64,000 bases of DNA, taken from the NCBI GenBank assembly GCA_002269645.1, contig NIVC01002957.1, positions 3,258 through 67,257 on the forward strand, written 5' to 3'. The DNA comes from Macrostomum lignano (taxonomy: Eukaryota). The notes under the pieces are model-generated. The model was not told the origin of the DNA and made no database searches. It was given only the letters and a program-made list of their open reading frames with translations. A program made the position numbers and the translations under genes. Shown one piece after another: positions 1 to 20,068 of the stretch (positions are counted from its first letter, which is position 1; every line of letters begins with the position of its first letter).

Positions 1-211
1 TTTTTAATTTGTTTTTTAATCCATGTTTAAGAAATTCATAATATTTTATTCTAGGTTTATTAGTATAAATTATTAAATTATTATAGTCTAACATTCCATC
101 TGTTGTTAATAAATCGTAAACAAAGTGTGTTTTTCCTTTACCTGATCCTCCGATTACTAAACAAAGAAAAGGATCATTTGGAAATATTTTATTGTGTTTT
201 GCCTTTACCAT
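1..211 (-). CDS. Polinton DNA-packaging ATPase (A32/FtsK-like), N-terminal part, runs off window edge
   Basis: Not in the ORF track. Manual translation from ATG at 211: MVKAKHNKIFPNDPFLCLVIGGSGKGKTHFVYDLLTTDGMLDYNNLIIYTNKP..., with Walker A GGSGKGKT at 151-128 and an LDYNNL motif typical of Polinton ATPases. Confidence 0.88.
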   Translation of the reverse strand, partial: MVKAKHNKIFPNDPFLCLVIGGSGKGKTHFVYDLLTTDGMLDYNNLIIYTNKPRIKYYEFLKHGLKNKLK

Positions 212-1802: not shown

Positions 1803-2474
1803 ATGAGTCAATTTATGGACGTTGATGGAGAGTTAGCGATTTATAAAGAGAAGCAAAGATATTCTGATTTTGTTAGAAATTTACAAAAAAGAAAGTTAGG
1901 AATACAATTAGCTGGCGAAAGATTTGCTGCTCCTTTTGTTAATCCTATTACTGGGAAAATTAGTGAACTAGAAAAAACAGATAAAGATCTTCTGGAAAAA
2001 ATTGCTAAAAATACTGAGCCAAAAGAGGATGAAATTTTGGATGAGCCGCCTGCTTATGATGTTGATCAAGCTCAATTGAGAATTGCAGAGATTAGACGTG
2101 CAGAGCGGGGCGATCGGGAACAATATCCAAGAGTACCAGCTAGTATTGCTGCGACAGATTTAGGTAATAATAATTATCGAATTGGTGGAGTTGATAAAAA
2201 TCGAAATGAACTATATAGAGAATTGGGTGGAGCATATAATATTGTTATGAACCCTAGGGTAAAGTTTAACCCTGATTTATATACTAGGGATGAATTAATA
2301 AGTGCTAGAATTTTTTATGATGAGTTAGGAGGAGCTGTTAAAAATACCAGCTTGTATAAAAGGATTGTTAATTCTATAAATAACAAACCGCCTGTTGGTG
2401 ATGGATTTAAAACACCACGAAAACTTGTTTTAGCTGCTGCGAAAGCTGCTGGACATACAGGAATCGCCCCGTAG
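1803..2474 (+). CDS. Polinton hypothetical protein, 223 aa (possible virion core protein)
   Basis: Intact ORF divergent from MCP. C-terminal GDG...RKLVLAAAKAAGHTG resembles the RLxLLxA...AG(N/H) motif of conserved Polinton proteins (weak, from memory). Confidence 0.6.
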   Translation: MSQFMDVDGELAIYKEKQRYSDFVRNLQKRKLGIQLAGERFAAPFVNPITGKISELEKTDKDLLEKIAKNTEPKEDEILDEPPAYDVDQAQLRIAEIRRAERGDREQYPRVPASIAATDLGNNNYRIGGVDKNRNELYRELGGAYNIVMNPRVKFNPDLYTRDELISARIFYDELGGAVKNTSLYKRIVNSINNKPPVGDGFKTPRKLVLAAAKAAGHTGIAP

Positions 2475-2526
2475 GGTCGCGAACCAAAGGTTCGATTAAT
2501 TAATTGTTAAATTTATTTTTTATAAA

Positions 2527-3096
2527 ATGGATGAAACAAAAATTTGTACTACGTGTAAAATTGAGAAACCGATGACTAAAGAATTTTTTTGTTGGAGAAA
2601 TGACACAAAAAAATTTAAAAATCTTTGTCGATCTTGTGAGAAAGTTAAATGTACTATGTGGAGAATAAACAATAAAGATAAATGTAATAAATATGCAAAA
2701 AATAAATATCGCACTGATGAAAATTTCAAAAATATTAGTCTAATTAGAGCTAAAATAACTTGGGCATTGAGAACTTTTCATGACAAACATTATATCTCCT
2801 ATCTTGGTTGCACAAAAGAATTCTTTTTTGATTGGTTAAATTTCACAAGAAATTATTATGTTCCAAAAAAATATACTGGAAAGTTAGATATTGATCATTT
2901 CATTCCCGCTTCTTCATTTAATTACAAAGACGATGATCAGATTAAAAAGTCTGAAAATTGGAGAAATAAAAGATACTTAACTAGCGTAGATAATAACTAT
3001 AAAAAAGTTAAACAACCAACAATTGAAGAATTTGCGAAACAATTGGTGCTATCATGTATTTTTAAGGCTATTAAAAATGAACCAAATAGTGTTTGA
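2527..3096 (+). CDS. Free-standing HNH endonuclease with N-terminal CxxC...CxxC zinc module, 189 aa
   Basis: CTTC...CRSC N-terminus, then YLGCTKEFFFDWL...IDHFIPASSF...NWRN...DNNYKK, the DH-N-N pattern of giant-virus/phage-type HNH endonucleases. The stop overlaps the first 20 nt of the next gene. Confidence 0.8.
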   Translation: MDETKICTTCKIEKPMTKEFFCWRNDTKKFKNLCRSCEKVKCTMWRINNKDKCNKYAKNKYRTDENFKNISLIRAKITWALRTFHDKHYISYLGCTKEFFFDWLNFTRNYYVPKKYTGKLDIDHFIPASSFNYKDDDQIKKSENWRNKRYLTSVDNNYKKVKQPTIEEFAKQLVLSCIFKAIKNEPNSV

Positions 3097-4654
3097 AGGA
3101 GGATTTTTAGACTTACAAAAAGGATTAACGAGCTTACCACCAATCTTTACTACTGGTAAATATACAGGGGAACTACACCTACCATCAATGAACTTCACAG
3201 GTTAACCCGTGGCCTGAGTGAGGAAGGCAATGTCCTTGCTAGTCACTATTTGTGGCGACATCTCCAAATTGCGTGAAACCCGTCATACAGCTTCAAGTAC
3301 CACTTCAAGTGAGAAATCTTTTGAAGGAACAGAGGTAACTCCTCTTCCCAAAGGTAAAAAGCTTGAAGACACGGTGGCAATGCGCAGCCAAGCTCCTAAG
3401 TATTTTAAATATAAGGAGAAGGTTCAGAGAGCAGACGGAGATGGGCGGTAATTATCGCCGCTTAAGGTGTGCTCCAGCCTCATTCGAAAGATTGAGGGTA
3501 AACAGCCGGGGACTAGACTGGATTTAAGATTAAATCCTGACAATACTCCAAAATCTGATTCAATTCCAATAAATGGGATTGATTGGTTAGCATACTATCA
3601 CGACTTAGCATATAGAGATGCTGACAAGAACCCGCCCGAGGAAGCATTAAGATTAAAACATGAAGCCGATCAAAAAATGATTCAAGGATTAGATAACTTG
3701 CAGGGATTATCGGTAGGTCAAAAATTAACTAGGTGGATGGTTAAAAAGATCTTGCAGTCTAAAGTTAAATTTGGTTTGGGAATTAATTATAATCAACATG
3801 GAAATAATTGTGTTGAGTGTTTACTATTAAGTGGCAGTGGGTTAAGTTCTGATGAGGCAAAGATTCTTCATAAAGAATATCGAAAACCTAAATTTTATAG
3901 AAAAATCATGAACTTCAAAAAGAATGAAATTTGGTATTCTGATTTAATGTCGATGCCGAAAGATCTGGGATATAAATATATCTTAACCATATTAGATGGT
4001 TTTACTCGATACGCGTGGGCTGTTCCTTTAAAATCCAAAAAGGGAGAGGAGGTTGCTGCTGCTTTTAGAAGTCTTGGAGAAAAAAGCGAAAGATTGTGTG
4101 TTGATGAAGGAAAAGAATTTTACAATCCTCATATGTATAAATTGTATCATTTTGAAAAAGGAAAAGAAAGGAAAAAAGACGCGAATGGGGAGTATATTAA
4201 TAAAATTTATTCTATTTATGGAGAGAGTAAAAACGCATTAATAGAAAGATTTAATCGAACTTTAGGTAAGAAATTATGGTTTCAGTTTAGTCTTAATGGA
4301 AACCAAAAGTGGGTAAAAATATTACCAGACGTTGTAAAAGATTATAACAATTCATATCATTCGGCGATAAAGATGACTCCTCAACAAGCTTATAACAATC
4401 CTGAAAAAGTTAAAGTTACTTTTGGAAAATTTGAAAAAAATAAAAAGAAATCTTTTAAGGTTGGTGATTCTGTTTATATCTATAAATGGAAAGATAAGTT
4501 TGAAAAAGGAAGAAAAGGATATTGGAAGATAAGTGAGAAATTTACTATCAGTAAAGTTTTAAATACCAATCCTACAACCTATATAATTGCTGATAAGGAC
4601 GGTGAAGAAATATTGGGTTCTTTTTATGAGAACCAGATAATGTCTGCGAACTAA
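3077..4654 (+). CDS. PLA2 (parvovirus VP1u-like)-retroviral integrase fusion, 424 aa after removal of group I intron; exons 3077-3202 and 3506-4654
   Basis: Joined exons read ...ELHLPSMNFTG|PGTRLDLRLNPD...PINGIDWLAYYHDLAY...EADQKM (PLA2 Ca-loop GPG, catalytic HD and D). Then come integrase D-D-E motifs WYSDLM, CVDEGKEF and ALIERFNRTL. No C-terminal chromodomain. Confidence 0.88.
3203..3505 (+). ncRNA. Group I self-splicing intron (IC1-like), 303 nt, no internal endonuclease
   Basis: The 5' exon ends in U3202 and the intron ends in G3505. P1: CAGGU(3198-3202)/IGS GCCUG(3212-3216) with U.G wobble. P3: CAUCUCC(3259-65)/GGAGAUG(3437-43). P4: UGCGU(3270-74)/GCGCA(3382-86). P5a: CUUCAAG(3291-97)/CUUGAAG(3362-68) with A-rich bulge. 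P6a: CUCCU/AGGAG. P7: G-[A]-GAGCA(3427-33)/UGCUCC(3470-75). P8: GGCGGU/AUCGCC. P9 has a GAAA loop (3478-97). Removal restores the frame at a codon boundary. Confidence 0.93.
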
Positions 4655-5309: not shown

Positions 5310-5554
5310 ACGATACAAAATACCCAGCAAACCAAAGCGAACGACGAGAGCGTGTTCTCACCATTCAAAAAGAATTAATCGTTGTAAGTGTGAAATGGCC
5401 TGTTTGACCGAAATGAAGCGAGGATGAGCGAAGCGAGTTGAGCGAAGTGAAGACGAGCGAAAATGAAGGGAAACAGGCCATTTCACACTGATAAAGGGTT
5501 AAATTGTTTGCAATGGTGAGAATGGTTTGCTGGGTATTTTGTATCGTATATACT
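5310..5554. repeat. Polinton terminal imperfect palindrome / TIR region
   Basis: Perfect inverted arms: 5310-5334/5523-5547 (25 bp), 5355-5365/5512-5522 (11 bp), 5387-5405/5471-5489 (19 bp). Confidence 0.85.
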
Positions 5555-5557
5555 GAA

Positions 5558-6485
5558 ATCTCTGAGGCAGCTCACTTTTAGGGATCTCTGAGGCAGCTCA
5601 CTTTTAGGGATCTCTGGGGCAGCTCACCTTTAGGGATCTCTGGGGCAGCTCACCTTTAGGGATCTCTGAGGCAGCTTACTTTTAGGGATCTCTCGGGCAG
5701 CTCACCTTTAGGGATCTCTGAGGCAGCTTACTTTTAGGGATCTCTGGAGGCAGCTTACTTTTAGGGATCTCTGGGGCAGCTTACTTTTAGGGATCTCTGA
5801 GGCAGCTTACTTTTAGGGATCTCTGGGGCAGCTCACCTTTAGGGATCTCTGGGGCAGCTCACCTTTAGGGATCTCTGGGGCAGCTCATTTTTAGAGATCT
5901 CTGGGCAGCTCACTTTTAGGGATCTCTGAGGCAGCTCACTTTTAGGGATCTCTGGGGCAGCTCACTTTTAGGGATCTCTGGGGCAGCTCACTTTTAGGGA
6001 TCTCTGGGGCAGCTCACTTTTAGGGATCTCTGGGGCAGCTCACCTTTAGGGATCTCTGGGGCAGCTCACCTTTAGGGATCTCTGGGGCAGCTCACTTTTA
6101 GGGATCTCTGGGGCAGCTCACCTTTAGGGATCTCTGGGGCAGCTCACCTTTAGGGATCTCTGAGGCAGCTTACTTTTAGGGATCTCTCGGGCAGCTCACC
6201 TTTAGGGATCTCTGAGGCAGCTTACTTTTAGGGATCTCTGGAGGCAGCTTACTTTTAGGGATCTCTGGGGCAGCTTACTTTTAGGGATCTCTGAGGCAGC
6301 TTACTTTTAGGGATCTCTGAGGCAGCTTACTTTTAGGGATCTCTCGGGCAGCTCACCTTTAGGGATCTCTGAGGCAGCTTACTTTTAGGGATCTCTGGAG
6401 GCAGCTTACTTTTAGGGATCTCTGGGGCAGCTCACCTTTAGGGATCGCTGAGGCAGCTCACTTTTAGGGATCTCTGGAGGCAGCG
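5558..6485. repeat. 26-bp minisatellite (GGGATCTCTGAGGCAGCTCACTTTTA)n
   Basis: Tandem copies visible directly. Inverted counterpart at about 42999-43327. Confidence 0.95.
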
Positions 6486-7030
6486 CGTTTTTTGGGAGTT
6501 CTGAGGCGAGTCCATGGATGGAGCAGAGCTCATTTAAGGAATCTCTGAACTCAGAGGAAGTCAATTTTGCATCTCTAAATGAAATTTGAAACCATGTTGA
6601 GAACGAGGTGCGACTCAAGTTTTAAATCCTCAGTTGAACTTAGCAGACTTAAGACCATGTTTAGACACGAGACGTATAAAAAAAGGCTGGACCAAAGCCA
6701 ATAAATAATTAATATTACGAAGCTTATTAACAGGATGTTAATGCAAGCCTGAGTGCTGTATTAATGGAGCAATATTAATAGAGTTTATTACGAAAATGCA
6801 TCTTTAGGTTAAATGAATAATTTAGCTTTGATCTAAATTTAGACCAAAGACCAACTGGGGTTTTCCAGTTCGAGTGAAATTCATTTGACGCCTAATTAAG
6901 GCTGGGGAGCGAACTTGTGCAGGTTAAGCCGTTCGGGAAGTTATGGGCTTGACGAACCATCGGCAGGAATTCTCTAAAAGAGCTGCTGATTTTGGCGTCC
7001 TTTACGCGCTCCTGCCGTCCCGACTACTTG

Positions 7031-7735
7031 CTTTTGGCGCCTGATGCTTATTTTTGGCGCCTGATGCTTATTTTTTGCGCCTGATGCTTATCTTTGGCAC
7101 CTGATGCTTATTTTTGGCACCTGATGCTTATTTTTGGCGCCTGATTCTTATTTTTGGCGCCTGATGCTTATTTTTGGCGCATGATGCTTATTTTTGGCGC
7201 TTGATGCTTATTTTTGGCGCCTGATGCTTATTTTGGCGGTTGATGCTTATTTTGGGCGCCTGATGCATATTTTGGGCGCCTAATGCTTATTTTTGGCGCT
7301 TGATGCTTTTTTGGCGCCTGATGCTTATTTTTGGCACCTGATGCTTATTTTTGGCGCCTGATTCTTATTTTTGGCGCCTGATGCTTATTTTTGGCGCATG
7401 ATGCTTATTTTTGGCGCTTGATGCTTATTTTTGGCGCCTGATGCTTATTTTGGCGGTTGATGCTTATTTTGGGCGCCTGATGCATATTTTGGGCGCCTAA
7501 TGCTTATTTTTGGCGCTTGATGCTTTTTTTGGCGTTTGATGCTTATTCTTGGCGCCTGATGCTTATTTTTGGCGCCTGATGCTTATTTTTGGCGCCTGAC
7601 GCTTATGTTTGGCACCTGATGCTTATTTTTGGCGGTTGATGCTTATTTTTGGCACCTGATGCTTATTTTTGGCGGTTGATGCTTATTTTTGGCACCTGAT
7701 GCTTATTTTGGCCCCTGATGCTCATTTAGCGAGCC
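7031..7735. repeat. 20-bp minisatellite (TTTTTGGCGCCTGATGCTTA)n
   Basis: Tandem copies. Inverted counterpart at about 41697-42453. Confidence 0.95.
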
Positions 7736-8635: not shown

Positions 8636-10858
8636 CTAAAGCGAATCATCATCAAACTCGTCGCCCTCGCCGCCGTCCAGCAGGTGCACCCAGCGATAGT
8701 GAGCAACCAAAGCCACCCGGTTCGGACAGAAGGTGCGGCACACCTGGCAGCCGAACGTGGTGGGCTCGCTGTGCGCCGCCGCCTCGTGCTCAGCCATGGC
8801 CGCGTCGCCGATAAGCCAGAGCCGGCACTCCGGACAGCGCCTGCCCAGCAAGGACCGGTCGGCCGGGTTCAGGTGCACCAACACCTGCGATGTAAATGGA
8901 ATTGCGTTTTTTTGCAAGGCCTTTGGTGCTTAAAGACTCAAGCTACTTACTAAGTAGTAAAATGATAGAATTTTGTGCAACGACAAGCGAACAGACCTGG
9001 TGGTTCTGCAGCAGCTCCGAGCCTGGGAAAGCTTCGTAGCAGGCGCCACACATCAACACCTGCGGCCGGCTGTGCAGTCGACTGCCAGCTCCAGCGACAG
9101 CGCCGGAGGCCTCGGCGGCCGCGGCATCGCGAACATGCCGCTGCAGTCGGGCGGGCGACACCTCGGCAAAGCAGAACGGGCACCGGGTGCTCTGCGGCCC
9201 GGCCGCTGCCGCCTCAGTCGCCGCGGTTGCATCGGCCAGCGACCAGGCCGACAGCACGCGGACTTCCTCAAGCCTGAAGGAGTCGCAAAGGCGGCGATGG
9301 TTGGCTAGAAACTCGGCCGAGACAAACGACAGCTGGCAAAGGTCGCACTGGTGCCGCTCCGACATCAGCGCGTCCTCCTCGCTGACTGTGGAGGCGTCGA
9401 GGTCGCAGGACACGGCAGCTGATGGATGCTGCTGCTGCTGCAGTCGCATTGTGGTTGGCGGAGGTGGTGGTGGCGGCGGCGGCGGCATGGACTTGTCGGG
9501 CAGCTGGCCTGGCCGCAGGCAGTGCGCTGCCGCTTCTGCTACGGATTCGTCAGTGTCCAGCAATGCCACTGGGCTGGCCGGAGGCGACACGGAGAAAGTG
9601 GCATCGGAGGCGGCGGCGGGCTCTGACGACTGTCTGGCCAGGCGGCAGTTGGCGTAGCGGAGCAGAGACTCAATTTCAGACCGGGACAGCAGCCGGTGCA
9701 CCTTGGTGATGTGCGAGTAAGCGTGCTGCCTGCGGTTGAAGCCTCGCCGACAGCGCATGCAGATGTAATTGGCGCGGTGCATGCTGCGGATGTGCCGGAG
9801 CAGGGTGGTGCGGCAGGACAGCACCTTGCCGCAGTGGCCGCACTTGCAGTTGGCTGCACTCGCGGGCTTGGAGGCTGGCTGCTTCTGTTGCTGGGCAGAC
9901 TGCAGCACCTGCGGCAGCGACTGCAGGCGGGTTATTTTCACCAGCAGCTTGCTCTTCTCGCCCGGCTGCTTTGCGGCCAAGTCAGGCGGCTCCTTCTTGA
10001 CGTCAGCAGCCGCAGCCGCCTCCGATTTCTTAAGCCGCGGCCGTCCGCCCATGGTTAACCAGGCCTCTCTGTGGTAGCGGCGCATGTGCCGGGAATAGTT
10101 AGTGAAGCCAACCAGCTTATGGCAGATCGGGCACAATTTACCCGGCCGCTTGTTGTTCGGCGTTGCCGTTGCGGCCGAACCCGCCGACGCTTTGGTTGAA
10201 TTCGTGGCCGAGCTGGAGTTCAGCGAGATCCGATCGGCGTCACTGTCGGCTCCGTCGGCTTCATCCGACTGCTCAGCTTCCTCGTGCTCCTGCTGAGCCG
10301 GCTTGTTTTTTGCTTTCCCGCCAGCTGTCAGGCGCCGATTCCCGAATTGGCGCCAGCGGTTTCGGGCTAAGCGGCGCATTTTGGCCCACTTGACCGGGTG
10401 GACGCGGCACATGTGGCTGCGGAACCCGCTGCCCGAGTGCAGCTGCCGGCCGCACTCCCGGCACTGCAGGTCCAGCGGCACCGGCACCGCGCGAGGCCCG
10501 ACCGACTTGGCCGGGCCGGCAGCCGCGCCAGGGGACAAGCGATTGCCGACGCTGCCTTCGCCGCCGCTGCCCCATCGTCTTTGCCGCCGCCACCGACGCC
10601 GGTTTCTTCAGTCCCTTCTTCAGTCGCTTCGGCCGCGTCGGCGGCGCCGGCCTCGATGCCGTGGGCCAGCAGCTCGTGGCGTTGTCGGCGGCCCCGCTGA
10701 GAGAACCGCTCGCCGCACCGGCGGCAGGCGAATTTCCAGGGCCGGTGCCGGTGCACCAGGTGGCGGCCCAGGCCCTGCGATGAGTTGGTGATGAACGGGC
10801 AGTGCGGGCACTTGTAGATGCCACCGCCGCTGCTGCCGGTGCTGCCGCGGGAGGCCAT
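8636..10858 (-). pseudogene. C2H2 zinc-finger gene, duplicate copy with 1-nt frameshift (exons 10858-8997, 8884-8636)
   Basis: Near-identical to 38347-40568, but has GATGGGGC (G4) instead of GATGGGGGC (G5) at about 10570-10573, splitting the ORF into 10367-10858 and 8943-10538. This may be a sequencing indel. Confidence 0.75.
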
Positions 10859-17724: not shown

Positions 17725-19203
17725 CCCAAGGATAACGGGAAGGTTCGACTTATTCATGACTGCAGCACGCCTCCGGGCTACTCGGTAAATGACAACTATA
17801 CGAAGAAGCTGAGCCCCAGGTTTGAGTCCGTCAAGAAGGTTGCAGCCTCTATCGGCAAGGGCTGGTTCATGGCAAAGCTTGACTCGTCGCAAGCTTACAG
17901 AAGCGTGGCGATCCATCTGGATGATTACCAGGCGACCGGCATTGGTTGGCGCTTTAAAGGCAACTGTGATCTGACATGGCTTGTCGACACCCGGCTACCC
18001 TTTGGTAGCTGCGCCTCGGTCGAGATTTTCTACCGGCTTACTCAAGCGGTCAAGAGGATGATGGTGCGACGCGGCGTGGCCAATATTTCGGTTTACCTGG
18101 ATGATTTTCTGGTTGCGGCCAAGAGCGAGAAAGAGTGTATGGATGCTCTGAAAGAGCTGATTAAGCTGGTTCGCCAGTTAGGTTTTGGTGTCAATTGGAA
18201 CAAAGTGGTTGAACCTACGCAATGCTTGGTGTATCTCGGTGTGAAGATTGATACTGTCCGTGGAGTTCTTAGTGTGCCGGCGGAAAAGTGTGAGGAAATG
18301 CGCACCACACTGCTTAACTTTTCGCAGCGCAGGCGTCTCTCGAAACGACAGCTTTCGTCGCTTTGTGGCAAGCTCAGCTGGGTCGTCCAGGTGGTGCACG
18401 CTGGGAGTTGCTTCCTAAGACCCCTGTTCGACCTGCTTAATGCCCTGGAAAAGCCACATCACAAAGTGCGTGTGTCCGCTGACACTGTGCGTATTTTACT
18501 CTGGTGGCGAGGTGCCCTTCTGAAGCTGCCTGATTTTCAGCTTTGGAGAAGTTGCACAAACGGCTGGATCATCGAAACCGATGCGAGCAGTGCTGGTGGC
18601 GGAGCCATTTTGCGCAATGGTAGCGGTATGGTGGATTGGCTGTACGTCAATTGGGATCTGGATGCTGGAGGAAAGTTTAAAGACAAGCATATCACGTACA
18701 AAGAAGCTATTGTTCCGCTGCTGGCTATGGTGCGCTGGGGTGCCTTTTTAAATGACAGTTCGGTCGTGGTCTACTCCGACTCTAGTGCGGCTGTTGGCAT
18801 GATTAACAGAGGTTGCTGTCGGCAGCCTGAGTTGCAGCCGCTGTTCCAGACTGCCATGCTCATTGCTGTTAGGCGTGGGGTTGAGGTGCGCGCTTTTCAT
18901 GTGCCTGGCTGGTACCACGTCTTTGCGGACCCGTGCTCTAGGCTGCACGCCGTGGACAAAATGCGCGATTTTTTATTTCGGGTGTATGGCTCTGTTGACT
19001 GCTGTTTTAACGAGATCGCTAGCCATGCTTTCTGCCCTGCTGCCTCCGTTTTTCTCATTTTACAGGCCCTCCGCGCCAGACTCCCGACCGCCTCAGCAAG
19101 CGTTGCGCGTTTATCCTGGGCAATGCCTACGCGCCCCGCACGAAGCGGAGTTACCGGTCGCAGTTCGCGTCTTGGCTGCGATTTTGCAATTCCCGGCACC
19201 TGA
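17725..19203 (+). CDS. Ngaro-type reverse transcriptase/RNase H (N-truncated)
   Basis: The frame opens at PKDNGKVRLIHDCS..SVND (17725), upstream of the ORF-track ATG at 17869. Motifs: RLPFG, YLDDF, YLGV, ETDAS, YKEA, YSDS, HVPG...ADPCSR. Confidence 0.85.
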   Translation, partial: PKDNGKVRLIHDCSTPPGYSVNDNYTKKLSPRFESVKKVAASIGKGWFMAKLDSSQAYRSVAIHLDDYQATGIGWRFKGNCDLTWLVDTRLPFGSCASVEIFYRLTQAVKRMMVRRGVANISVYLDDFLVAAKSEKECMDALKELIKLVRQLGFGVNWNKVVEPTQCLVYLGVKIDTVRGVLSVPAEKCEEMRTTLLNFSQRRRLSKRQLSSLCGKLSWVVQVVHAGSCFLRPLFDLLNALEKPHHKVRVSADTVRILLWWRGALLKLPDFQLWRSCTNGWIIETDASSAGGGAILRNGSGMVDWLYVNWDLDAGGKFKDKHITYKEAIVPLLAMVRWGAFLNDSSVVVYSDSSAAVGMINRGCCRQPELQPLFQTAMLIAVRRGVEVRAFHVPGWYHVFADPCSRLHAVDKMRDFLFRVYGSVDCCFNEIASHAFCPAASVFLILQALRARLPTASASVARLSWAMPTRPARSGVTGRSSRLGCDFAIPGT

Positions 19204-20066
19204 CGCCGCTGCGGGCAGAGCCTGTGCACGTGGCTGAATACCTGGCCGAGCTGTCCACCCGGCTGTCAGCCTTTCGGAGTTGCCAGGCGTATGCTAACGC
19301 GGTCTCGCTGTACTTCAGAGCTCTCGGCCGGCCGGACCCGTGCGAGTCGCCGATGGTTAAGCTGGTGCTTCGTGGTCTTCGCCGGTGTCTCAGTCGGCAG
19401 CAGCGCTCAAGGGAGCCATTCAGAGTCGCGGATCTCCTCAAGCTACACGCCCACCTGGACCAACGTCTGAAGAGTGACATCGCGTTCTGGGCAGCAGTTC
19501 TGGCAGCCTGGTGGGGTATGCTGCGAAAAGCGAATGTGACGACGCAATCGGGGCAGCTCGATCTGTGGTGCGACCTGGCAGCATCGAGCATCGTCTTCTC
19601 AGAGTACGACTGTGAGCTCACTGTGCGGCATTCGAAGACCAACCAGTTTGGCGATCGAGTTCAGCGAGTGTTTCTTCCGAAACTGCCTGATGGAAGCTTG
19701 GGTGTCCTGTGCCCGTTCCGTGCGCTCGAGCGGCAGCTATACGGACAAACCGAATCGGCCAGGCGCCGCGTCCGGTTCACCTGTTCTCCACGTGGTCGTC
19801 CGCGGGATGGTTGCCTCTGACGGCTAGCAGGTTTGATAGCCGGCTTCGTTCGCTCTGCACATCGGCGGGTTTGTCGCCACGCGAGTTCACTGGCCACGGG
19901 CTGCGGCGGGGCGGCGCTACGGCAGCCATGCAGCTCGGTGTTCCACTGTCGATGATCAAGAAGCTGGGCGACTGGAAGGGCAACTCAGTGTTTCGCTATT
20001 TATCTGTTCGGGACTCGGATGCCAGGGCGGCTGTGCATGGCTTGGCTCGTCGGGTTGGCGCGCTCT

Positions 20067-20068
<2 letters not shown>
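19066..20068 (+). pseudogene. Tyrosine recombinase of Ngaro element, frameshifted
   Basis: AYAPRTKRSY...LRFC (about 19123 onward), WWGMLRKAN, HSKTNQFG and CPFRAL in the frame of 19224-19820. HGLRRGGAT and GDWKGNSVFRY are in the frame of 19709-20068. Confidence 0.82.

Follow-up and report, generated by a model that had tools for sequence, protein, structure and literature searches.

A putative homing-endonuclease locus beside a group I intron site in Polintons of an animal genome

Introduction

In cyanophage S-PM2, the free-standing nuclease F-CphI lies beside a psbA intron that lacks an open reading frame (ORF) (PMC6083498), and further cases of collaborative homing have been described in T3/T7-like phage and for the ICP1 terminase (PMC6083498, PMC3984707, PMC10448857). 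What we attribute to these and later papers refers to the portions of their text that were available. Here we analyze a comparable arrangement in a 64,000-nucleotide stretch of Macrostomum lignano DNA (the window; G000:C2957:3258-67257 of a 764-Mb assembly), which opens inside a Polinton and holds an HNH gene directly upstream of a PLA2-integrase gene split by a group I intron without an ORF. We propose, with a probability of roughly 0.55, that the position of the HNH gene (the slot) is a homing-endonuclease locus of the intron family at this PLA2 site, whose nucleases would target the flanking exons and compete among intron-plus copies.

For giant and polinton-like viruses, collaborative homing has only been speculated upon (PMC11296320, bioRxiv 10.64898/2026.10.13.758929). 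Group I introns are known from polr2a/b of Bodo saltans virus (PMC5871332), and 51 have been described in protist polinton-like viruses (PLVs) of Paulinella, Desmodesmus and Rhodomonas (PMC12220804). Like the introns considered here, they belong to group I, either carry or lack a nuclease ORF, and lie in protein genes of giant viruses or viruses of Polinton grade; unlike them, they occupy other genes in protist hosts, and the available portions of these reports mention no PLA2 site, paired slot or animal host.

In animals, group I introns occur in mitochondria of sponges, corals and placozoans (PMC11835236, PMC6545197, PMC10964413), with reports from some sharks (PMC10964413), while nuclear ones are described as confined to the ribosomal DNA (rDNA) of microorganisms (PMC3679873). 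The hexacoral mitochondrial ND5-717 intron ends in A and is spliced in vivo (PMC6545197), a precedent for A-ending splicing among the introns described below. These likewise belong to group I and occur in an animal, but they lie on nuclear contigs, in a protein gene of a mobile element, in more than 150 copies, and A and G ends segregate within one family. Adintoviruses and Polintons with pPolB, an rve integrase, a capsid and a parvovirus-like PLA2 domain (PLA2X) (PMC8502044) have all four in common with the window's Polinton family. Here, by contrast, PLA2 is fused to the integrase, and the available text of that paper mentions no HNH gene, homing or group I intron. A literature search in which most subscription papers were not covered found neither group I introns nor paired homing nucleases reported from animal Polintons, and nothing on Eco47II-like intron nucleases.

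Results

The HNH ORF of the window is free of stops, overlaps the PLA2-integrase ORF by 20 nucleotides (nt), and ends 106 nt before the last base of exon 1 (Table 1). A first-pass annotation of the sequence had described this geometry, and an intact ORF between core Polinton genes, correctly: genes for capsid, rve integrase and PLA2 are among its neighbours. The predicted protein comprises a zinc ribbon (residues 1-40), a helical linker and a beta-beta-alpha-Me core with D123-H124, N147 and N156. In a structure model built from 98 sequences (predicted local distance difference test, pLDDT, 93.6), residues 1-43 aligned with Hpy99I (VIA-align Z 5.8, root-mean-square deviation 1.4, 41 aligned residues), and the core gave weak but repeated HNH-fold matches to Cap5, IscB, BrxU and Cas9 HNH (Z 3.9-4.7). 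Cas9 HNH domains were also the best Foldseek rows (E 0.07, none below 0.001). Searching the PDB by sequence returned only Hpy99I (E 0.009) and a designed repeat, and Pfam HNH scored in 5 of 98 relatives and not in the window's protein (P0001). A word-indexed search with P0001 alone found no homologue, while a profile search with the family yielded 16,498 relatives. The nearest ESM Atlas clusters are unnamed viral proteins (0.95); the nearest named one, an HNH protein (0.89), serves as a lead only.

The first-pass annotation had read the motif NKRYL as divergent and the gene as possibly decaying. NKRYL is instead the norm of the local family: across 109 HNH loci, N147 is present in 107, K148 in 107, R149 in 108, Y150 in 106 and L151 in 106. 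The catalytic D-H...N...N motif is likewise kept (D123 107, H124 103, N147 107, N156 107), H124 is invariant among the 98 relatives, and 68 of the 109 loci combine a full ORF with the motif. The ratio of nonsynonymous to synonymous substitution rates (dN/dS) between HNH classes is 0.34-0.59 in the core and up to 1.05 in the N-terminal part; frameshifts occur at 1.3/kb versus 1.5/kb in the integrase, a rough comparison as the references differ. Decay was rejected on the conserved motif residues (103-108 of 109 loci), the core dN/dS and the frameshift rate close to that of the integrase. We conclude that the ORF is an intact HNH gene with predicted nuclease activity.

The downstream intron (intron A) scores 65.7 bits against the Rfam model RF00028 (gathering score 50, E 7e-16), with boundaries fixed by the natural intron-less copies L101, L149 and L156; the L149 allele passes the Pfam PLA2 cut-off. 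A 3' end at 3496, as placed by Rfam, was rejected: it would add three residues relative to natural intron-less alleles and break P9. Rfam also overlooked introns in L070, L080 and L150 when six loci were scanned together. P1 with its U.G pair, which also marks the boundary, is present in 91 of 91 haplotypes read. Intron A also has core helices P3, P4, P6 and P7 and the G-C guanosine-site pair. Across 94 intron-A haplotypes helices P1-P9 persist: 8306 pairing cells were unchanged, 206 were altered and still paired (in 111 of them both sides differed), and 270 were unpaired, these being partly alignment shifts in P6b, P8 and P9.0 and U.U pairs. P2 carries four adjacent double-sided swaps in 20 haplotypes, and P3 shows pair-keeping changes. 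The folding energy of the intron alone is modest (z -2.3). We take the P5abc domain to suggest subgroup IC. The longest stop-free frame wholly inside the intron has 77 residues and no nuclease motif, in agreement with the earlier statement that it encodes no nuclease. By sequence and pairing, then, this is a real ORF-less group I intron.

Intron A is presumably spliced, since intron-plus copies retain an exon 1 whose codons are compatible with PLA2. At L102:2250-3750, contigs from 4 of 23 listed runs (three sets presumed to be RNA and one without a label) span the intron with no joint listed across it; such contigs show presence only, and this counts neither for nor against splicing. At the 3' end, 80 of 107 intron-A copies terminate in A and 27 in G, the window copy being of the latter kind; the introns of L230-L232 (family 2, below) also end in G. 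P9.0 is intact and the guanosine-site pair standard in the 80 A-ending introns; 11 of the 27 G-ending introns, of the window's type, carry a P9.0 mismatch. At the intron-less junctions L101 and L233 the base that forms the U.G pair is C, not T, and would block P1 of intron A; L149 and L156 keep T. In read contigs at L102:3004-3082, further insertions start at the P2.1 loop, so there should be more intron variants than the assembly sample shows.

We sampled 139 loci of this Polinton family (family 1), namely all 109 merged HNH matches together with 108 scored integrase matches (of 1808 candidates), so that counts are lower bounds. The slot holds an HNH gene in 109 loci, with allele classes about 51-100% identical, and in 27 a gene for an unrelated 167-aa Eco47II-like PD-(D/E)XK protein, within which dN/dS is 0.24; three incomplete loci were unreadable. 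Intron A occupies the PLA2 site in 109 loci (4 partial) and a different intron, B, in 22; three have none and five were unreadable, making 131 of 134 readable copies intron-plus. All three intron-less copies carry HNH, two of them with a full ORF, and searching with an intron-less query returned the same three uninterrupted family-1 loci among 150 scored.

These counts speak against part of the first-pass proposal, which had the HNH gene and intron spreading as one unit from copies with both into copies with neither. Copies lacking both number 0 of 134 readable ones, and a co-occurrence check as then framed cannot pass when every intron-less copy keeps HNH. Nor do the two parts stay together: introns that are almost the same have any of four HNH classes, or the PD-(D/E)XK gene, as their neighbour, and introns within 1% of each other share a nuclease class in 39% of 421 pairs, versus 23% of other pairs. 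Judged from these comparisons, the HNH gene and the intron of the window do not form a fixed unit.

Relatives of both slot nucleases reside within introns. All 28 scored RF00028 matches in the genome belong to a second Polinton family (family 2; PLA2 about 60% identical, intron copies at 83-89 bits), and 28 of 28 adjoin an Eco47II-like ORF, whose product matches Pfam RE_Eco47II at 30.1 against a cut-off of 25.9. In the three loci whose DNA was read (L230-L232; the others were placed by coordinates), the intron occupies the same PLA2 position and the ORF lies inside it, in the P2.1 loop above a 12-bp closing stem, reading into the ribozyme core. Family 2 is polymorphic, with the nuclease on the contig in 25 of 25 split loci and in 0 of 20 uninterrupted ones. 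Beyond this genome, 9 of 21 Eco47II-like homologues run on into translated intron core. So do two HNH relatives (P0004 and P0071) among the best 150 of the 16,498, their DNA context being taken from the protein tails alone; in P0004, the third best, residues 3-183 match the slot HNH and residues 177-234 match the intron. By this homology both slot occupants belong to intron-resident nuclease clades, which upholds the tie between slot and intron: the HNH clade also occurs inside the PLA2-site intron family, and in family 2 an intron at this same PLA2 site encodes the slot's other nuclease.

In a midpoint-rooted tree, the Eco47II-like genes of the slot and those within family-2 introns group as sisters (85/87) among relatives that read through into introns, which weakly suggests that the gene left the intron for a free-standing state; the HNH tree does not resolve the direction of this transition. 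No relatives were found in a viral contig collection, and metagenome contigs gave nothing for P0004 and one free-standing HNH gene without an intron, on a 1.2-kb contig (L235). On eight contigs (C3326, C184, C1098, C4052, C3344, C2459, C3452 and C4616), family-2-like PLA2 matches start no earlier than residue 73-74, which may point to a second interruption or to a further family.

Intron B (e.g. L070/L071, oriented 2967-3290) has a different ribozyme core and reaches only 30.7 bits against RF00028 (E 5e-6). It has P2, P2.1 and a P5abc-like periphery in common with intron A, whereas P3, P4, P7 and P9 differ but all pair; P3, P4 and P7 also differ yet pair fully across intron A, the family-2 intron and intron B. 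On this evidence intron B is a chimeric ribozyme, with core motifs that recall subgroup IE/ID. Its likeliest 3' splice site, chosen by analogy of P9.0 and P10, puts exon 2 out of frame, while other candidate Gs would give in-frame products with an altered calcium loop. Intron B is found with five nuclease classes. Six loci are rearranged copies (L130, L153, L156, L192, L189 and L190), in which we saw an ORF2-like duplication replacing most of HNH, a foreign insertion within intron B, or HNH without PLA2 behind it.

Haplotype comparisons point to movement of slot alleles. In a scan of 117 haplotypes from 130 loci over 43 ten-codon blocks of PLA2-integrase, synonymous diversity was highest at codons 41-50 (0.32) and next highest at codons 31-40 (0.23), which straddle the insertion site; this fits exon sequence around that site as the target zone. 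The slot has the largest mean distance of the region (0.24) but 5-7% near-identical pairs, compared with 2-3% in ORF2 and exon 2, where mean distances are 0.06-0.08. In a linkage scan of the 90 complete haplotypes among the 117, near-identical slots shared the ORF2 3' end at a frequency of 0.23 (background 0.04), exon 1 at 0.42 (0.06) and the intron at 0.51 (0.10).

The clearest case is HNH class H5. Nine of its ten haplotypes are within 1% over the slot, exon 1 and the exon-2 head, and their intron B differs by a mean of 0.001, while ORF2 differs by 6-12%; H5 and intron B moved as a block, the only such pair (nuclease class by intron type chi2 59.9, permutation p 0.0002; haplotypes not independent). 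The window's class, H3, is near-identical over ORF2 backgrounds 9-11% apart, and the window's exon-2 head accompanies it in 7 of 15 haplotypes versus 3 of 70 among the others. Alleles of classes H1 and H4 moved and left exon 1 and the intron behind. Capsid and ORF2 comparisons for H4 and for all classes together were left out, being inflated by incomplete loci. Nuclease and intron travelled as one block in H5 with intron B, and not in the window's H3 or in H1 or H4.

Discussion

What we observed is the layout of the locus, its allele counts, selection acting on the ORFs, relatives embedded in introns and a single block transfer; to these our model adds, by inference, cleavage, target position, splicing and, weakly, departure from the intron. 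The HNH protein would be a site-directed nuclease, its zinc ribbon and helices binding DNA and its HNH core nicking or cutting, most likely in PLA2 exon sequence next to the intron site. Where two Polinton genomes meet in one nucleus, an unprotected allele would be cut and repaired from the cutter, copying the nuclease gene and, in long tracts, also exon 1, the intron and the first exon-2 codons. In this way homing may have brought the intron close to fixation in family 1; today the nucleases would survive chiefly by replacing each other in copies that already have an intron, where recoded exon codons or another intron would give protection.

Several observations weigh against this proposal. 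The haplotypes are related, which makes the p-values optimistic, and the whole region is a mosaic in which ordinary recombination can yield many such patterns. In 8 of 15 haplotypes H3 is joined to a different exon-2 head, and it also occurs with other exon-1 and intron types; among the nuclease classes only H5 has a private exon haplotype. Once scaled to background, linkage is nearly symmetric on both sides of the slot, so it does not place the cut target, and the middle of ORF2 is as variable as exon 1 (pi 0.21 at 2066-2164). No HNH gene was found inside an intron in this genome, and a slot occupied in every readable copy would also suit a function that the virus needs.

That last point leads to the reading in which the slot serves a function needed by or profitable to the Polinton, such as genome processing, host DNA breakdown or attack on unrelated viruses, and either nuclease fold would do. 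The intron would then have spread by an earlier internal nuclease of its own or by the family-2 enzyme in trans, with mosaics left to ordinary recombination. Purifying selection on both genes, the generality of the mosaicism and the packaging role proposed for HNH genes near PLV packaging genes (PMC12220804) agree with it. Such domestication nonetheless seems unlikely given that intron-less family-2 copies have neither nuclease on their contigs (0/20), that both nuclease families are intron residents elsewhere, that recoding peaks at the intron site, and that the allele classes are deep and recently spread.

Collaborative homing in the strict sense, with the HNH enzyme cutting only intron-less PLA2 alleles, the intron alone protecting and both spreading as a unit, matches the geometry of F-CphI and psbA (PMC6083498), the intron's presence in 131 of 134 readable copies and the H5-intron B block, and intron-less targets could exist outside the assembly or in family 2 (20 loci). 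It has to accommodate HNH in every intron-less family-1 copy, the 39% sharing of nuclease class among near-identical introns and five nuclease classes beside intron B; with hardly any intron-less targets, H5 and intron B could not have spread in this way, and we regard it as distinctly unlikely. Homing that ignores the intron, with a target in ORF2 or elsewhere and a proximity that is incidental or historical, would explain the hypervariable ORF2 middle, the symmetric linkage and the moves of H1 and H4. It is very unlikely in our view: the intron-embedded homologues point to the intron site, and the one clean block runs rightward to the exon-2 head and excludes ORF2. The first-pass proposal is partly supported, by the intron-linked nuclease clades, the synonymous-diversity peak at the insertion site and the H5 block; a fixed unit, drive into copies with neither part and decay are not supported.

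Competition among intron-plus copies, the reading we prefer, brings the locus close to phage systems, and the Polinton system most likely works like phage collaborative homing and marker exclusion. As with F-CphI and psbA, a free-standing nuclease gene adjoins an ORF-less intron. The setting differs, being a Polinton in an animal genome rather than a phage, with cleavage predicted; the slot alternates between a PD-(D/E)XK gene and various HNH alleles, two ribozyme cores use one site, intron-less copies keep the nuclease, and embedded and free-standing states of one nuclease coexist in one genome. We do not class it as the F-CphI type because the nuclease occurs without the intron (3/3) and recipients without both are 0 of 134. 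I-HmuI/I-HmuII and SegF are reportedly phage examples of competition or marker exclusion by free-standing nucleases. Phage free-standing nucleases resemble the slot in unrelated classes at the same position, localized recent exchange and competition among occupied alleles; the slot differs in belonging to an endogenous animal virus family and being tied to one intron site. A replacement of HNH-3 by PD-(D/E)XK is described in ICP1-like tail operons (PMC10448857). Exit from the intron would reverse the route reviewed in PMC3984707 and come near the turnover alternative in PMC10448857, as far as the available text of each goes.

This is a known kind of system in an unexpected host, unusually well sampled, with at least 131 family-1 and 28 family-2 intron copies in Polintons, and Wnt genes on Polinton-bearing contigs. 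A complete, active homing ecology in an endogenous animal virus family, with self-splicing introns (the A-ending majority form and the chimeric second core among them) removed from protein-coding transcripts in the nucleus, and HNH and Eco47II-like nucleases, found within the intron and just outside it, cutting and converting rivals, is a serious possibility, if somewhat short of an even chance. Group I introns in a nucleus outside rDNA and a natural contest between homing endonucleases in an animal would both be firsts, and Eco47II-like proteins would become established as a family of intron homing nucleases. One genome holds free-standing and intron-embedded nucleases at one site, a transition disputed in phages, and with more than 100 natural alleles a single system could be used to test which way that transition ran, whether immunity is allele-specific and whether A-ending introns splice. 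Since homing needs two element genomes in a nucleus, it also touches the question whether Polintons of animals behave as viruses in replication and recombination.

The element and its surroundings

The host is an animal: the assembly has 86 Wnt matches, some on cassette-bearing contigs. Protist contamination was rejected: on C952, Wnt exons lie some 24 kb away from the cassette, and Wnt is also present on C506, C67 and C393. The Polinton/adintovirus hallmarks are an rve integrase, a double-jelly-roll capsid and an ATPase motif, together with pPolB, which lies about 10 kb upstream in near-identical copies (C2506, C2140, C3109 and C4889); the window's own contig starts too late to include it. 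Both rve integrase and PLA2 domains are recognized in the PLA2-integrase. The window's gene order is ATPase-like gene, capsid gene, ORF2, HNH ORF, PLA2-integrase and terminal palindrome. The first of these, which we take to be a packaging ATPase, was assigned no Pfam family. The capsid model is of low confidence (pLDDT 51), with Foldseek matches to the capsids of iridovirus, Sputnik, mavirus and PBCV-1 (best E 4e-10). We place the element's right end near 5554 on the assumption that Polintons terminate in AG...CT.

Table 1. Coordinates of the Polinton features in the window and of the family-2 nuclease ORF
Feature	Position	Strand	Remarks
Packaging-ATPase-like gene (putative), 5' end	1..211	-	Walker A-like GGSGKGKT read in sequence; ORF continues in locus L234
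Major capsid protein, double jelly roll, 490 aa	296..1768	-	AlphaFold and Foldseek
ORF2, 223 aa, function not assigned	1803..2474	+	Middle part highly variable between copies
Double-hairpin mini-insertion, about 30 nt, end of ORF2	2462..2497	.	Optional between copies
Free-standing HNH nuclease (predicted), allele class H3, 189 aa	2527..3096	+	Slot filled otherwise in other copies
PLA2-integrase exon 1, 42 codons (ATG at 3077)	3077..3202	+	Ends in first Gly of calcium-loop motif
Group I intron A, ORF-less, 303 nt, P1-P9 and P5abc domain	3203..3505	+	Window copy ends in G
PLA2-integrase exon 2, remaining PLA2 domain and rve integrase	3506..4654	+	First 8 codons synonymously recoded between copies
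Long imperfect palindrome, element's right end	5310..5554	.	Arms 5310-5334/5523-5547 100%; 5382-5405/5471-5494 92%
Family-2 Eco47II-like ORF	L230:1542-2228		Within intron L230:1464-2343

Double-hairpin mini-insertions of 30-33 nt, in frame and optional, occur in 90 of the 139 loci, at the end of ORF2, just 3' of the PLA2 start codon, in the intron P5 region and further downstream; to us they are reminiscent of what we take to be double-hairpin elements in fungal and sponge mitochondria. Directly outside the element's right end lie two tandem arrays, at 5560-6480 and 7030-7730, with units of about 29 nt and about 19 nt. They are followed by a host C2H2 zinc-finger gene at 8943-10858 (-), whose nearest Atlas clusters are animal, and at 17869-20068 by what we presume to be a reverse-transcriptase and tyrosine-recombinase-like element.

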